This document shows, in pieces, positions 4,958 to 50,598 of a stretch of DNA of 64,000 nt. Source of the stretch: Bacteroidota bacterium (GTDB lineage: Bacteria > Bacteroidota > Rhodothermia > JANXDC01); assembly GCA_025059945.1 (NCBI GenBank), contig JANXDC010000015.1, forward strand, positions 184,053-248,052, in the 5' to 3' direction. Position numbers and translations under genes: made by a program. The notes beneath the pieces are model-generated. The model saw only the letters and a program-made list of their open reading frames with translations, was not told where the DNA came from and did no database searches. Position 1 is the first letter of the stretch, and each line of letters begins with the position of its first letter.

Positions 4958-5615
4958 AGCCAAACCGGCCGGCCTCTTCATCGGTGTGGCCGGCAACATC
5001 GGGGTCGGTAAATCCTCCTTGACCGAGATCCTGAGCCGGCATTTTGGATGGCGGGCGCATTTCGAGGTGGTGGACCACAACCCGTATCTGCCGGACTTCT
5101 ACAGCGACATGCGTCGGTGGTCCTTTCACCTGCAGATCTTTTTTCTGTCCAATCGCTTCCGGCATCACCGCGAAATCGCGCAAGGCCTGGATGCGGCCGT
5201 GGTGGACCGCACCATCTACGAAGACGCGGAGATCTTCGCACGCAACCTCTTCGAGATGGGCCTCATGAGTGAGCGCGATTATTGGAGCTACCGCCAGCTG
5301 TATCGGACCATGATCGAGTTTCTGCGCCCCCCTGATCTGCTCATCTATCTGCGCGCCTCCGTGGGCACCCTCGTGGATCAGATCCGCCGCCGAGGTCGCC
5401 CGTACGAGGCGAACATCAGCATCGAATACCTGGATCGGCTCAACCGGCTCTATGAAGAATGGATCGGGGGCTATAAGCTGGGCCCTAAGCTTGTCTTGGA
5501 CACGGATGAGCTCGATTTTGTGCACAACCTAGAGCACCGCCACCAGATTCTCCAGACCATCGAGCGGCATCTTTTCGGGCTCTTTCCCATCAAGGAGGTC
5601 CCAAGGCGTTCGTGA
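4944..5615 (+). CDS. deoxynucleoside kinase (dCK/dGK family)
   Basis: P-loop GVAGNIGVGKSS, plus DRxxYED and the ERS motif characteristic of deoxynucleoside kinases. Overlaps the cca stop by 14 nt. Confidence 0.8.
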   Translation: MCARKAKPAGLFIGVAGNIGVGKSSLTEILSRHFGWRAHFEVVDHNPYLPDFYSDMRRWSFHLQIFFLSNRFRHHREIAQGLDAAVVDRTIYEDAEIFARNLFEMGLMSERDYWSYRQLYRTMIEFLRPPDLLIYLRASVGTLVDQIRRRGRPYEANISIEYLDRLNRLYEEWIGGYKLGPKLVLDTDELDFVHNLEHRHQILQTIERHLFGLFPIKEVPRRS

Positions 5616-7228
5616 CCGCCATCGCGTTGCTCCTGGAGGCATTCGGCTCTCTTTGGAGGGGGGACTCCTTATGGGCTGGCGGGGAGCGCTTCGGACGCGA
5701 TCCGTACGCGGATCTAGGGGGGCTGCTTCGGATGCGCCCCCTGGAGGTGCGCCAGGCCGGGCTGGGATGGGCTTGGTACTACGACCGAGGCCTTCCCCCA
5801 GGGGCGCGCGGCCTCTGGTACGGAGGCCTCCGGCTTGAGGATCCGTTCACGCGCGAGCCGCTTCCGATCCTAGCGCCCCAAGATGCGGGCGCGCTCCGCT
5901 GGCATCCGGCTTTGGGCTTTAGCTGGGCGGACCGGCCGGAACCCCCAGAACCGCTCACGGTGCTCGGCTATCATCAGGCCCTACGGGGAGGCCTGGAGGC
6001 CTTTGGCGCTGCGCACGCGCAGCGGCTCTACGGGTCGACGTGGCTTTCCCTGCAATACGGCCTGGGCTCAGACCGAGGGCGCTGGCCGGGAGAAGAGGTG
6101 CGCAACCGAACCGTGGGAGCCGGCATCTCCACTCGGCGCGGCCCGTGGCGATGGACGCTGCGATACGCGGCAGATGCTCACAACGGGCGCTCCAACGAAG
6201 GCTGGGCCGTGAGCAACCCGCCAGCGTGGAGTTTATGGGAACGCACCCCTCCCTGGATCGCCCCGCAGGGACGGACTTGGCGGCTGAGGCGCGAATGGGC
6301 TCGCCTACAGGCGCTCCATCCGAAATGGGGGGAGTGGGGGCTGGTGCGTCAGTTTTATCGGTACGCATTCGAAACGCGCTCCCGTCGTTTTGCCGCCTGG
6401 TCCCTGCAGGGACGTTTTCGCCAGACCGGGGGGGATTTCGAATGGGAGCTGGGCCGAGCCGAGGCGACCGATTCCGCCTGGCCGCAGGCCTTGCGTCTTT
6501 CCTGGCTTGAGGTGCGGATTCTGGATACGATCCGTCCTCCGCTCTGGGCGGGGATGCGCCTGCGTTGGGGGTCCAAGGGGGGAGAGGCCTTGGCGGGCGC
6601 CTGGGGAGCCCGCCTGGGCCGGGGAGACGTTTGGATGCTCGGCGGATGGATGGGCCCCGATTGGGAGGAGCGCGGCGCTCGAGGCCGCCAAGCCGGTATT
6701 GCCTTTCTGCACTTGAGCGGGGTCTGGTCGGATGCCCGTTGGCGCTGGGAGCCCTTCGTTACGCTTTCCCGAACCGATACGACCTCTGTGCTCGTGGCGG
6801 GGGCGGAGCTGAGCCTGCGATGGCGCCGCGGCCTCTGGGGGGGAACGGGTCGGCTTCTGGGCCAGCTTCAGCGAGGTGCTCCTCGGGCGCTACCGGAGCT
6901 CTCGGTGCGTCTAGAGGGGTACCGGGACTTTTTCGTAGCCCAGGGAGCCTGGCGATTCCGCTTGGAGGCCGTTCTCAGCGGGCAAAGCGGAGGTTGCCGA
7001 AGCGCATGGGATTTGACCCGTCTTCGGCGCTGGCCGGCTTCGGGCCCCGGCACTCCTCCCGGCCTGTGGCTTGATCTGCGTCTGTTCGCCCAATCCGGAC
7101 GCGCTTGGCCTTATCTGGCCCTGGACAACGCCCTAGATGGCCTACCGGGCGTTGTTTTGCCGACCGCCTATAGGCCCTTGGACCGCCGTCGGGTGCGCTG
7201 GGGACTTCTGTGGGAGCTCAGCTACTAG
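5612..7228 (+). CDS. hypothetical Trp/Arg/Gly-rich protein, putative outer-membrane beta-barrel
   Basis: ATGA start/stop overlap with the deoxynucleoside kinase gene. 538 aa with extreme Trp/Arg content. C-terminus ...RWGLLWELSY has alternating hydrophobics ending in an aromatic residue (beta-signal-like). No recognisable enzymatic motifs. Confidence 0.45.
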   Translation: MTAIALLLEAFGSLWRGDSLWAGGERFGRDPYADLGGLLRMRPLEVRQAGLGWAWYYDRGLPPGARGLWYGGLRLEDPFTREPLPILAPQDAGALRWHPALGFSWADRPEPPEPLTVLGYHQALRGGLEAFGAAHAQRLYGSTWLSLQYGLGSDRGRWPGEEVRNRTVGAGISTRRGPWRWTLRYAADAHNGRSNEGWAVSNPPAWSLWERTPPWIAPQGRTWRLRREWARLQALHPKWGEWGLVRQFYRYAFETRSRRFAAWSLQGRFRQTGGDFEWELGRAEATDSAWPQALRLSWLEVRILDTIRPPLWAGMRLRWGSKGGEALAGAWGARLGRGDVWMLGGWMGPDWEERGARGRQAGIAFLHLSGVWSDARWRWEPFVTLSRTDTTSVLVAGAELSLRWRRGLWGGTGRLLGQLQRGAPRALPELSVRLEGYRDFFVAQGAWRFRLEAVLSGQSGGCRSAWDLTRLRRWPASGPGTPPGLWLDLRLFAQSGRAWPYLALDNALDGLPGVVLPTAYRPLDRRRVRWGLLWELSY

Positions 7229-46732: not shown

Positions 46733-47740
46733 ATGCGTTTGGGCGCTTTTGCGCTTGGATTTCTACTCTGTGCTCATCCGACCGCCGCCCAAGATGCAGG
46801 CGCGCCCGGGGCCTTTGTGCGGCTTAGCTGGAGTGCGCGCGCCCTGGCTCTGGGCGATGCTCTTGTGGCCGTACCGTGGGGAACGGTATCCGGCCCGCAC
46901 AATCCCGCGCTCCTGCCTTGGAGCCCCGCACAGAGCGTGCAGGCCTTTGCGGCCCTTTTGGCTCTGGACCGGCAACTGATGGGGGTTTCGTTTCAGGCCC
47001 CGCTTCGGCCCTCAGCTGGCGTTACGGTCGGGATCGTGCAAGCCGGCGTAGGGCGTATCGATGGGCGCGACGCAAGCGGCTATCATACGGGTTGGCTGCA
47101 CGCGGCCGAGCAACGTCTGCACTTCGGCTTCGGATACCGCATGGGTCCTCGGGCGGCCTTTGGTGTCGGTTTCAGCTTCAACCGCAGCCAGCTGCATCCC
47201 GCCCTTTCGGCCCCCACCACGTTGGGCGTGGACGTGGGGTTGTTGCTGGAGCTGCATCCAAACTGGTATCTGGGCGTTTCCGTGGCGGACCTGTTGGCCC
47301 GCTACAGTTGGGATACGGCCGCCCTGTACGGGGCGGAGGGCGCCGCAAGCACGGATCGCTTTCCGTTGCGCATACGCCTCGGCTCGGCGCGTTCCTGGGG
47401 TCCTTGGATGGCCACCGGAGAGCTAGAGGTGCGGGCCTACACGGCCGAGCGACGGCTAAACCAGGTGGAGATCCGCGGGGGTGCGCCCATAATCCTGCAA
47501 CGCCGGCAGACGGAGCGCCTTTGGACGAGCCGATGGTCGGGGGGTCTGGAGTACGCCTGGCGCGACGCCCTGCTGTTGCGAGCCGGGCTGCAGGGGGACG
47601 CGACGGGCTGGCGACCTGGGGCTGGATTTGCCGTGCGCCGTCTTGTGGGCGAGCTCACCCTGGAGGCGGGATACGCCATGGGTTGGCAAGAGCCCGTCGG
47701 GCTTTTGGGCCATCGTCTCGAGCTCAACGTGCGCTTTTAG
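46733..47740 (+). CDS. outer-membrane beta-barrel protein, possibly PorP/SprF- or PorV-like T9SS-associated
   Basis: Signal peptide MRLGAFALGFLLCAHPTAAQ. Alternating amphipathic beta-strands. C-terminal beta-signal ...LELNVRF. Family assignment is tentative. Confidence 0.45.
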   Translation: MRLGAFALGFLLCAHPTAAQDAGAPGAFVRLSWSARALALGDALVAVPWGTVSGPHNPALLPWSPAQSVQAFAALLALDRQLMGVSFQAPLRPSAGVTVGIVQAGVGRIDGRDASGYHTGWLHAAEQRLHFGFGYRMGPRAAFGVGFSFNRSQLHPALSAPTTLGVDVGLLLELHPNWYLGVSVADLLARYSWDTAALYGAEGAASTDRFPLRIRLGSARSWGPWMATGELEVRAYTAERRLNQVEIRGGAPIILQRRQTERLWTSRWSGGLEYAWRDALLLRAGLQGDATGWRPGAGFAVRRLVGELTLEAGYAMGWQEPVGLLGHRLELNVRF

Positions 47741-47961
47741 GTATCGTGTGCGCGCCCTACGTAGGCCAAAAGCCGAACCGGAAAGCTGCGCCGCTCTTGC
47801 CCCCGGCGCACGTGCGCCAGCTGCCGATCGGCCTCATAGCGTTCGACTTGCCACTCGTAGCGCGTTCGCTCCGGACCGGCTGCACGCCAGCTGTCTAACT
47901 CCATCCAGCGCACCACCACATCGCCAGGTTCCAAGGGGATTTTCTCCTGCGGCTCCGGCAT
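47737..47961 (-). CDS. hypothetical small protein (74 aa)
   Basis: Clean ORF with high GC3, charged composition and no homology recognised. Convergent 4-nt overlap with the upstream gene. Confidence 0.3.
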   Translation of the reverse strand: MPEPQEKIPLEPGDVVVRWMELDSWRAAGPERTRYEWQVERYEADRQLAHVRRGQERRSFPVRLLAYVGRAHDT

Positions 47962-48003: not shown

Positions 48004-48092
48004 GCCCGGATGGCGGAAAGGTAGACGCGAGGGACTTAAAATCCCTTGGCCCGAAAAGGGCCGTGCGGGTTCGAATCCCGCTCCGGGCACCA
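48004..48092 (+). tRNA. tRNA-Leu (anticodon TAA), CCA encoded
   Basis: Hand-folded. Acceptor GCCCGGA/TCCGGGC, anticodon stem AGGGA/TCCCT with loop CTTAAAA, long variable arm, T-arm GCGGG-TTCGAAT-CCCGC, and 3' ACCA. Candidate promoter TTGCGC-N17-CTAATT at 47964-47992. Confidence 0.9.
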
Positions 48093-48094
48093 TC

Positions 48095-48727
48095 TTAAGG
48101 CGTCCAGCCCTCCTCGAGCCAGGGTCTAAGCCGGGGATGCCGGCGTAAATGCTGCACAATACGGTGCCAGTAGACCCGCACGGTCCCAGGCAGCATCCGC
48201 AGCCGCTCTGCGATCTCCTTTAGCCCGTAGCCGTAGTACACGTGCAAACGCGCGATTTCACGCTGCAGAGGGGGCAAGGCCTCAATCAGCTCGGCCAGCA
48301 CCTTGAGCACCTCCGTCTCATCAAACTGCTGGTCTCGTTCAGGTTCCTCTATGGGCATATCCCTTTCTTCGGGATATAAGGGCTCAGGGAGGCGCTCGGG
48401 ACTCCTATGAGCCGAGTACCAGACGTTCAAGCAAATCCGGTTCACCCACGCGGGGTAGGCCTGGGGATAGCGGAGCTGAGCGAACCCCCGGCGGACGCGC
48501 TCAAGGGCTGCATCGATCATCGCCTCCAGCTGCGAAGGCCAGGCCGTTCGGTCCAGACGCGAAGCGAAAAACCGCACGATCCAGTAGTATGTCCACTCCC
48601 AAAGATCCGCCCGCAGCCGCTCATCCCCCGTGTTTCGATATCGCTCACAAGCCCTCCCCACAGCGGCCAGATCCGGGAAACGTCGGCGCACCCGCCGCTC
48701 AAGTTCGCTCAGCAGCCAGCTTTCCAT
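48095..48727 (-). CDS. ECF-subfamily RNA polymerase sigma factor
   Basis: Sigma-70 region 2 (YYWIVRFF...) and region 4 HTH (LPPLQREIARLHVYYGYGLKEIAERLRMLPGTVRVYWHRIVQHLR). No anti-sigma gene adjacent. Confidence 0.7.
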   Translation of the reverse strand: MESWLLSELERRVRRRFPDLAAVGRACERYRNTGDERLRADLWEWTYYWIVRFFASRLDRTAWPSQLEAMIDAALERVRRGFAQLRYPQAYPAWVNRICLNVWYSAHRSPERLPEPLYPEERDMPIEEPERDQQFDETEVLKVLAELIEALPPLQREIARLHVYYGYGLKEIAERLRMLPGTVRVYWHRIVQHLRRHPRLRPWLEEGWTP

Positions 48728-49221
48728 ATCCTTGCTTGGGCGGACTCAGCTAGATGGCGGTGTTTTTGAACAGATGTCCTGTGTCTCGACTCAAATCTAA
48801 GAAAACCGATAGCGGAAGCGCTGCGTCGTTCGATCGAAAAAGGTACGCGGTCCTCATACAAGGCCTCAGAGGAAACCCAAGGAGCAAGACCCTAGCACGT
48901 TGGACCGCAAGCGTCCACCAAGGGAATACGCCGTTGCCGATCTGTTTTAGCCAGCCGCTGAGCGCGTAGCGGGCCAGGGTGCCGAAAGCTCCGGCAGGCC
49001 CAATATAGCGAGGCGCGCATGCCGCTACCCTCTCTCAAGGAGGAAAATAAAGCTACAACTGATCCCAATCTTTGTGCAACTTTTCATACATACTCCGACG
49101 TCCCTGTCATCACCTAAAGGGATGTTCGGGGTCCCGCTAAAGAGGGGCTAGAGAGGATAGCCCGGCAAGCCTTGCCTGCTTCCGGGCAAACCAAGATTTC
49201 CTCCCCTAGGGGATCTATCTC

Positions 49222-50415
49222 TTAGGGGCGGTGGGCCGCTAGGGGAGCGGAGCTGAAAAGGGATACTAAGCGGGTGCCGGGGTAATAGGCCTCAAGGATT
49301 TGTTTGTAGTTCTGCCCGGTCCGGGCCCGGCCCTGAGCGCCGTACTGACAAAGGCCGACTCCATGACCGAGCCCATTGCCTTCTATATGCACTTCCCGAG
49401 CTTGAAAGCTGAAGATAAAGCGCGTGCTGCGAAGCGCTCTCCAGCCGAAAGCATCGCTTACGAGCGTGCGGAACTGTGTTCCGCTTAGGCGCATGGGTTC
49501 CGGTCCTTGTAGCCATACGCTTACCACCCGTCCGCTGGGGCCGTATTCGAACGGGCCTACGTCGGTGATGCGCCGCTTAAGGGCGCGTTCCAAAGCCCCC
49601 AGGAGGGCCTCCTTAGTCAGAACAGTGCGCCAGCGCGCATGCGGAGAGTGTTCGCAGAAAGGGTCGGGCAGGGGCCGTAGATACGGCAGCGCTTTTGCTG
49701 GCCAGGCCTCCTCATTAGCCGCCGTGTGGCCCCCACAGGTGGAGGCGTATACGGCCTCGATGGGACGGCCCTCGTAGGTGAGCAATTCCCCATAAGTCTC
49801 CAGGGCGGCCCGGCGCGCAAGCGGGCGCTCGGTGGCCAGGCCCAAGTAGAGCTGACTAAACTGGTGATCTTCGATGTGATAGCCCAACGAGAGAAACCGA
49901 TGTAGGGTGGCCACTGCGTAGGTGCGCGCCAAGACGGCCTGCGCCTTAAGCGCCTCCAGTTCCGAAAAGGGCATCTCCGCGCCCACAACGCTTGCTATGT
50001 AATCCTCTAGGTCCACAATGTTGATCACCCACAAGGAGCCGTCCGAGCGCGCCTGCACCTCTATTTCCCCTCGATAAGCGCGGCGCACGCCGGCATGCTC
50101 AAGCGTGAGCGTATCCAAGGGGTTAGTCCGGATCCAAATCCGATCGCCGGCTCGCTCCAGGGCCGGCGATCGTCCTACAGCCAACGTGATCCGCTGACGA
50201 GCCGGCACGAGGGCCAACCGCTCCTGACGGCCAGGCGCGTAGATCCGCAGTCCTTCCCGGTGGCTATAGACGGTTATCGCGCGCACCGGCTGGTCGCTCA
50301 AGAGCCGAACACGAAGCGCTATCTGTTGGGCCGAAACCGAGGGGGGGGTGGAAAGGAGCGCACAGGCCAGCACAACCCCGATTCGGCCCGTTCGGAGGGT
50401 AAAAAAGCAGGGCAT
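49222..50415 (-). CDS. SpoIID/LytB-domain protein (peptidoglycan hydrolase regulator/lytic transglycosylase-like)
   Basis: Signal peptide plus SpoIID/LytB domain hallmarks (LEDYIASVVGAEMP...EALKAQAVLARTYA...YASTCGGHTA). Confidence 0.75.
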   Translation of the reverse strand: MPCFFTLRTGRIGVVLACALLSTPPSVSAQQIALRVRLLSDQPVRAITVYSHREGLRIYAPGRQERLALVPARQRITLAVGRSPALERAGDRIWIRTNPLDTLTLEHAGVRRAYRGEIEVQARSDGSLWVINIVDLEDYIASVVGAEMPFSELEALKAQAVLARTYAVATLHRFLSLGYHIEDHQFSQLYLGLATERPLARRAALETYGELLTYEGRPIEAVYASTCGGHTAANEEAWPAKALPYLRPLPDPFCEHSPHARWRTVLTKEALLGALERALKRRITDVGPFEYGPSGRVVSVWLQGPEPMRLSGTQFRTLVSDAFGWRALRSTRFIFSFQAREVHIEGNGLGHGVGLCQYGAQGRARTGQNYKQILEAYYPGTRLVSLFSSAPLAAHRP

Positions 50416-50559: not shown

Positions 50560-50598
50560 CTAAAAACGAAACGCCCCGAGCTTGGGGGCTCGGGGCGT
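50560..50598 (-). terminator. rho-independent terminator downstream of clpB
   Basis: 10-bp GC stem ACGCCCCGAG/CTCGGGGCGT with an 8-nt loop, then TTCGTTTTT on the minus strand, 17 nt after the clpB stop. Confidence 0.65.

Follow-up and report, generated by a model that had tools for sequence, protein, structure and literature searches.

CrcB proteins, fluoride channels of the CrcB/Fluc family (PF02537, TIGR00494), are encoded by intact open reading frames that include transmembrane (TM) helices 3 and 4. Genes of the DUF190 family (COG1993) are often found with crcB, and a fluoride riboswitch (the crcB motif, RF01734) is expected before many crcB genes; a search of the literature for DUF190, crcB and fluoride together returned nothing useful. 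Here we analyse a 494-nt gap between two genes in a 64,000-nt stretch of DNA from a Bacteroidota bacterium (the window), and comparison with a related lineage leaves us highly confident that this gap is made up of a broken, half-deleted crcB remnant together with the old spacer that lay upstream of it, the outcome of ordinary gene decay. The remnant is homologous to codons 1–74 of bona fide crcB but, unlike members of the family, it is frameshifted, has lost its C-terminal 50 codons and is non-functional. It occupies the same position as the crcB–DUF190 pair of KatS3mg041/GCA_900175145.1, with a similar SpoIID–crcB spacer and a conserved upstream block, whereas the window lineage keeps 60% of crcB and no DUF190. 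The remnant is a pseudogene of a well-known family and not a new kind of element, RNA or regulatory device. Gene callers skip such a remnant, and annotators should mark positions 48800–49020 of the window (minus strand) as a crcB pseudogene.

The SpoIID–sigma interval and its neighbourhood

The gap at 48728–49221 extends from the stop codon of a SpoIID-domain gene, its upstream flank (49222–50415, minus strand; 397 aa; stop codon at 49224–49222; PF08486 at 73.8 bits), to the start codon, at 48727, of an intact ECF-type (group 4) sigma-70 family gene, its downstream flank (48095–48727, minus strand; 210 aa). The sigma protein belongs to the NCBIfam family TIGR02937, sigma70-ECF (57.3 bits against a cut-off of 42.9, covering 9–163 of 165 positions), and has Pfam matches to Sigma70_r4_2 and Sigma70_ECF, the latter at 24 bits against 21.1. 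The boundaries and flanking genes given for the gap in the first-pass annotation therefore hold exactly, both flanks being confirmed by Pfam and NCBIfam, and in physical terms the gap does form, as described there, the region 5′ of the sigma gene. That it has no credible open reading frame agrees with public gene calls, which leave the interval empty in five near-identical contigs. The statement that almost all spacers in the window are shorter than 120 nt was too strong, there being gaps of 213, 178, 200 and 127–133 nt nearby; at 493–494 nt, the interval is by far the largest gap in the 12.6 kb around the site. Spacer lengths were judged from public gene calls in this 12.6-kb neighbourhood only; our own GC3-based ORF caller was too crude window-wide, missing genes and leaving nine apparent gaps of more than 400 nt.

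On the other side of the sigma gene, a tRNA-Leu gene (anticodon TAA; 48004–48092, plus strand) lies 2 nt from the sigma stop codon on the opposite strand. It is wedged between the sigma gene and a conserved 74-aa ORF, an arrangement that the relative introduced below appears to share. This ORF (47737–47961, minus strand), downstream of sigma, has 69% amino-acid identity in the relative with a dN/dS of 0.12, matches no Pfam or NCBIfam family and has no obvious anti-sigma features; its stop overlaps a convergent 335-aa ORF by 4 nt.

The orthologous interval of a relative contains intact crcB and DUF190 genes

In a database of 5.8 billion proteins the sigma protein is represented by two clusters only, its own (100% identical proteins from 'Bacteroidetes bacterium' MAGs) and one that is 69% identical. 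MAGs with this locus include GCA_033578205.1, GCA_033580315.1 and GCA_026416915.1. The five contigs that carry the identical sigma protein (L001–L005) share the 494-nt spacer at about 99% identity and, together with the window, make up the six strains compared below. A scan of GTDB species representatives by SpoIID alignment identified one related genome, which is of the same species as L006, the remaining matches having less than 40% identity and coming from unrelated phyla. The outgroup, a single lineage in the databases searched, consists of L006 (GCA_900175145.1) and L008 (AP024675.1, 'Bacteroidetes bacterium KatS3mg041', a complete genome), and we refer to it as the relative.

Gene order in L006 matches that of the window, with a GFO/IDH/MocA-family gene, a small ORF, clpB and SpoIID upstream, and sigma, ORF71/74 and further genes downstream; the two SpoIID proteins share 58% amino-acid identity. 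The SpoIID–sigma interval of L006 is 956 nt long, compared to 494 nt in the window, and contains intact crcB and DUF190 genes, and L008 is identically arranged. The crcB gene of L006 encodes 124 aa and matches PF02537 at 98.5 bits and TIGR00494 at 97.8 bits (cut-off 80.45), and the DUF190 gene encodes 125 aa and matches PF02641 at 144 bits. The first-pass annotation had proposed that a short or unconserved orthologous interval, if accompanied by no discrete transcript, would mark the island as a degenerate spacer; the relative's interval is indeed not conserved non-coding DNA, consisting as it does of two protein genes.

Spacing within the relative's interval is tight, with 13 nt between crcB and DUF190 and 11 nt between the DUF190 stop codon and the sigma ATG. 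Because the sigma ATG lies 11 nt past the DUF190 stop codon, the relative's sigma gene is probably co-transcribed with crcB and DUF190, and this ECF-type sigma gene appears to share an operon with a fluoride channel gene. The gene run occupies positions 5224–6627 of L006 and 6275–7678 of L008. An ECF-promoter-like GGAAC-N16-CGAC lies inside the 3′ end of the L006 DUF190 gene (5962–5986). An inverted repeat, TGCCAC-AAAAG-GTGGCA (L006 5158–5174), precedes the intact crcB by about 50 nt and is a possible operator or hairpin; in its window counterpart at 49061–49079 (TTGCACAAAGATTGGGA) the pairing is gone.

The interval in the window contains a frameshifted and truncated crcB

Comparison of the two intervals by blastn indicated that positions 49084–48800 of the window (minus strand) align with L006 5153–5444 at 67% DNA identity (E 2e-25). 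The aligned stretch corresponds to the 71 nt upstream of the L006 crcB gene plus its codons 1–74, and accounts for 285 of the 494 nt of the spacer. Over the 221-nt pseudogene itself (48800–49020, minus strand), which covers codons 1–74 of the roughly 124 that the ancestral gene had, DNA identity to L006 crcB is 67–70%. In a tblastn comparison the relative's CrcB matched the spacer with 27 identities in 44 positions over residues 6–49 (E 8e-16), and two other frames extended the match to residue 74. Against the whole 64-kb window the same query gave E 5e-11, and the remnant is the only crcB-like sequence in the window. The "decayed gene" among the candidates of the first-pass annotation thus proved to be the right one, the crcB remnant being revealed by the very blastx-type check that had been suggested there.

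Several lesions interrupt the gene. The crcB ATG is kept, at 49020–49018, but two 1-nt deletions, at CDS positions 17 and 27 and both present in all six independent assemblies, have shifted the conserved segment into a different frame. More indels, likewise shared by the six assemblies, occur near codons 45–55 and 66–70. Other lesions are polymorphic: an extra C at 48903 is present in the window and L002, L004 has indels of its own, and among strains there are indel polymorphisms at 48903 and 48856. The variable columns of the spacer include two frame-changing indels. An uninterrupted in-frame CrcB ORF of about 120–130 codons is absent from the interval, and no ORF in the correct frame starts upstream of the conserved part. 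When the frame is corrected, the translation is identical to the relative's CrcB at 50 of 73 positions and matches the Pfam CRCB profile at 37.4 bits (cut-off 32.9; E 3.3e-9) over profile positions 3–58 of 103. This family match holds for the reconstructed sequence only, since uncorrected single-frame pieces score 19.6–21 bits, under the cut-off.

Upstream of the start codon, a conserved block at 49021–49084 (minus strand; GC 43.8%) aligns with L006 5153–5223 and likely represents the putative ancestral promoter and leader of crcB, although a consensus scan called no sigma-70-type promoter in it. The distance from the SpoIID stop codon to the crcB ATG is 201 nt in the window and 179 nt in the relative, distances so alike that nothing extra has been inserted. 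Comparison with L006 also revealed a shared CAGGGACG farther upstream, at 49106–49099 of the window.

At the other end, homology to L006 stops at a deletion junction at 48799–48800 (minus strand), corresponding to L006 position 5444. The last conserved residues are IGFL (codon 74), just before the relative's TM helix 3 motif GAFTTFSTFS, a segment that lies at the pore/Na+ site of Fluc channels. TM helices 3 and 4 are absent, and with them CRCB profile positions 59–103. From the junction to the sigma ATG there are 556 nt in L006 as opposed to 72 nt in the window, a net loss of about 484 nt.

These comparisons suggest the following history. The common ancestor of the window organism and the relative would have had the order SpoIID–crcB–(DUF190)–sigma. 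In the window lineage crcB became frameshifted, and a deletion of roughly 480–500 nt took out its 3′ half, with TM helices 3 and 4, and probably DUF190 as well. What is left of this small fluoride-resistance gene pair is the 201-nt SpoIID–crcB spacer, 221 nt of frameshifted crcB, the deletion junction and the 72 nt before sigma; the DNA of the island now encodes no product and drifts. On this history a fluoride channel disappeared recently from this locus in a little-sampled Bacteroidota-like lineage, available as metagenome assemblies only, and because of that loss the lineage must use another exporter elsewhere in its genome or tolerate the loss. An ECF-type sigma gene, probably once co-transcribed with crcB and DUF190, has been left behind the wreck of a gene.

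Base composition, codon pattern and polymorphism of the island

The low GC content reported for the island in the first-pass annotation is real as a contrast, but the values are 55.1% for the spacer and 63.6% for the window rather than 53% and 67%. The pseudogene has a GC content of 59.7%, compared to 63.3% in the same part of the intact gene; the tail that directly precedes the sigma gene is at 49%, and the block upstream of crcB is at 44%. Going from the relative to the window, the pseudogene has 24 GC-to-AT differences and 16 AT-to-GC differences. The low GC of the island is thus explained by AT-rich intergenic pieces together with a slight AT drift in the pseudogene.

Identity between the pseudogene and the relative's crcB at codon positions 1, 2 and 3 is 0.81, 0.85 and 0.52, respectively, and its dN/dS is 0.22, similar to that of live neighbours (the sigma gene has a dN/dS of 0.16 against L006), with dS between the lineages at about 1–2. 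This coding-type pattern of codon-position identity suggests that crcB stayed functional over most of the period that separates the two lineages and that its decay is comparatively recent. The decay is nonetheless placed, by the sequences available, at a time before the six sampled strains diverged.

An alignment of the 494-nt spacer from these six strains contains 30 variable columns, which amount to at least 22 events after indel-shifted runs are collapsed. Variable sites number 10 in the 1194 nt of SpoIID and 0 in the 633 nt of sigma, and make up 0.62% of the third codon positions of six flanking genes. The spacer is therefore about seven times more polymorphic than nearby third codon positions (Fisher p = 6e-9, using the conservative count of 22 events), and when set against those positions it does not show the sequence constraint of a conserved non-coding regulatory element, be it a leader or an sRNA. 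Variation peaks in the head of the spacer, next to SpoIID, and is at its minimum in the tail, next to sigma. L004 (GCA_026416915.1) alone accounts for 22 of the 30 variable columns. Since the polymorphism exceeds simple neutrality and is mostly private to this strain, a local recombination tract in L004 may add to the effect of relaxed constraint.

Expression of the sigma gene

With its former neighbours gone, the sigma gene must probably have its promoter somewhere within the spacer. The tail, a 72-nt segment directly upstream of the sigma ATG (48728–48799, minus strand), has an AAGGA 5 nt before the ATG. The segment resembles neither DUF190 nor anything else in the L006 interval significantly, its alignments being no better than those of shuffled sequences. 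Only one of its columns varies, the lowest polymorphism in the spacer. We think it rather likely that a predicted promoter for sigma lies in this tail. By eye, a weak ECF-promoter-like CAGGAC-N13-CACCGCC can be seen at 48781–48756 (minus strand), and it resembles a CAGGAAC-N13-CACCGAC upstream of the relative's sigma gene, inside the 3′ end of DUF190, a likeness that carries no statistical support; the motif is a candidate that may be a retained sigma promoter. Putative read-through from the old crcB promoter across the pseudogene, as an alternative source of sigma transcripts, we regard as doubtful.

A stronger version of the latter possibility is that the remnant has been co-opted as a 5′ leader of about 300 nt that regulates sigma and is transcribed from the retained crcB promoter at about 49030–49085. 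Such co-option would be compatible with a pseudogene origin of the DNA. It would fit with the relative's sigma ATG lying 11 nt past the DUF190 stop codon and so probably being co-transcribed with it, with the still recognisable conservation of the block upstream of crcB, and with there being no strong terminator before sigma (the sole call in the pseudogene, at 48895–48877, is weak and at chance level). Nevertheless, we consider it unlikely: the putative leader has strain-specific indels and 4–8% variable columns, it is no more structured than shuffled sequence, none of the riboswitch or leader families in Rfam matches it, no promoter was called for it by the consensus scan, and the low variability of the tail is a better fit to a proximal promoter. 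As a particular form of this idea, the pseudogene might serve as a 5′ UTR that keeps a stress-linked sigma factor under the ancestral crcB promoter after loss of the transporter, to which we attach little likelihood; if true, a sigma factor seemingly derived from a fluoride or ion-stress operon would have stayed under its old control with a pseudogene as its leader.

Polarity of the difference between the two lineages

The window spacer holds no detectable DUF190 remnant, as assessed by tblastn (best E 0.24) and by local DNA alignments evaluated against shuffles. From comparison with one outgroup we infer that the ancestor carried DUF190 at the locus, and the right-hand boundary of the deletion is placed by the same comparison. 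The opposite polarity is that the ancestor had crcB only, that DUF190 came into the relative's lineage by a later insertion, and that the window lost just the 3′ half of crcB. The missing DUF190 remnant and the availability of only a single outgroup are what such a history has on its side. It is quite improbable in our judgement, as the gaps of 13 nt and 11 nt in the relative make up a tight, operon-like arrangement and DUF190 genes commonly accompany crcB. We therefore favour the loss of crcB's 3′ half and DUF190 together in the window lineage.

No support for an RNA element in the island

An sRNA and a long structured leader were the other candidates in the first-pass annotation, and neither found support: there is no Rfam match, folding is at the level of shuffled sequences, and no other stretch of the locus is as polymorphic as the island. 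Specifically, a search of positions 48500–49450 against Rfam 15 gave no match in the spacer at E ≤ 10, the sole hit being a chance enod40 fragment in SpoIID (E 0.3), and at Rfam gathering thresholds the whole window yields three tRNAs only, all of them elsewhere. The fluoride riboswitch RF01734, which precedes many crcB genes, was not detected by cmscan either here (E ≤ 10, window 48500–49450) or in the relative (E ≤ 1, L006 4900–6100), and crcB at this locus was apparently not riboswitch-controlled. Folding of the whole spacer against dinucleotide shuffles revealed no excess stability (z = +0.35 on the minus strand and −0.69 on the plus strand), and when four sub-blocks were folded only a 38-nt hairpin did mildly better than shuffles. 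A scan of the spacer for promoters and terminators called no sigma-70-type promoter and 6 terminator-like hits, against an expectation of 3.2 ± 1.8. Internal repeats are limited to short two-copy matches of 9–18 nt, which we treated as chance.

It is accordingly very unlikely that either strand of the island encodes a small RNA in its own right. Such an RNA could draw on the length of the gene-free stretch, on the stable hairpin within it (z = −2.0) and on some terminator-like hits, but these hits are at chance level, the Rfam and folding results just given run against it, 285 of the 494 nt are already taken up by crcB homology, the stretch is highly polymorphic, and the relative's orthologous interval is protein-coding. 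A pseudogenised anti-sigma factor, the former partner of the sigma gene, is scarcely credible, because nothing speaks for it except that the ECF-type sigma gene beside it lacks a neighbouring anti-sigma gene, whereas the relative's interval contains crcB and DUF190 and lies upstream of sigma, anti-sigma genes normally being found downstream of the sigma gene. In a search of ten six-frame segments against Pfam at E ≤ 1, which has limited sensitivity for short decayed fragments, CRCB was the only family returned, and an anti-sigma remnant was rejected as a candidate.

The head of the spacer: palindromes and a hairpin

For about 40% of the spacer, namely its head and tail, the explanation draws on position and composition rather than on homology. 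The head (49085–49221, minus strand; 137 nt) is the 3′ region of SpoIID, forming the distal part of the ancestral SpoIID–crcB intergenic spacer, and it holds both the hairpin and the palindrome to which attention had been drawn. Its alignment to L006 is no better than that of shuffles, it has 15 variable columns among strains, and its GC content is 56.2%, compared to 55.3% in the equivalent L006 spacer.

The perfect palindrome CCCCTAGGGG is present exactly at 49203–49212, as reported, but its occurrence is not beyond chance: perfect 10-nt palindromes number 125 in the window, or about one for every 494 nt, and 39% of shuffled spacers contain one. In strain L004, CCCCTAGGGG is disrupted. A second perfect 10-nt palindrome, TTCGATCGAA, lies at 48829–48838, inside the crcB pseudogene, and fits chance occurrence.

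The imperfect hairpin, GCCCGGAAGC-AGGCAAG-GCUUGCCGGGC, is likewise there, at about 49160–49187 (minus strand), 34 nt past the SpoIID stop codon, and has 10 pairs, one bulge and a 7-nt loop. It folds at −18.6 kcal/mol (z = −2.0), a stability reached by 6 of 200 shuffles, and is thus modestly above chance. At 49186 a C/T polymorphism keeps the pairing, a G-C pair becoming G-U. The hairpin resembles a Rho-independent terminator in being a GC-rich 10-pair stem near the SpoIID stop codon and differs from one in that the stem is followed by UAUCCUCUCUAGCCCC, with no U-run; the terminator scan made no call at it. It is the best candidate for the SpoIID transcription terminator and is probably a non-canonical one. 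The stop codon of clpB is directly followed by a strong canonical intrinsic terminator (50571–50598, minus strand), with an 11-pair stem of which 9 pairs are GC and a T-run, so that this organism, in contrast to what is seen 3′ of SpoIID, does use classical terminators.
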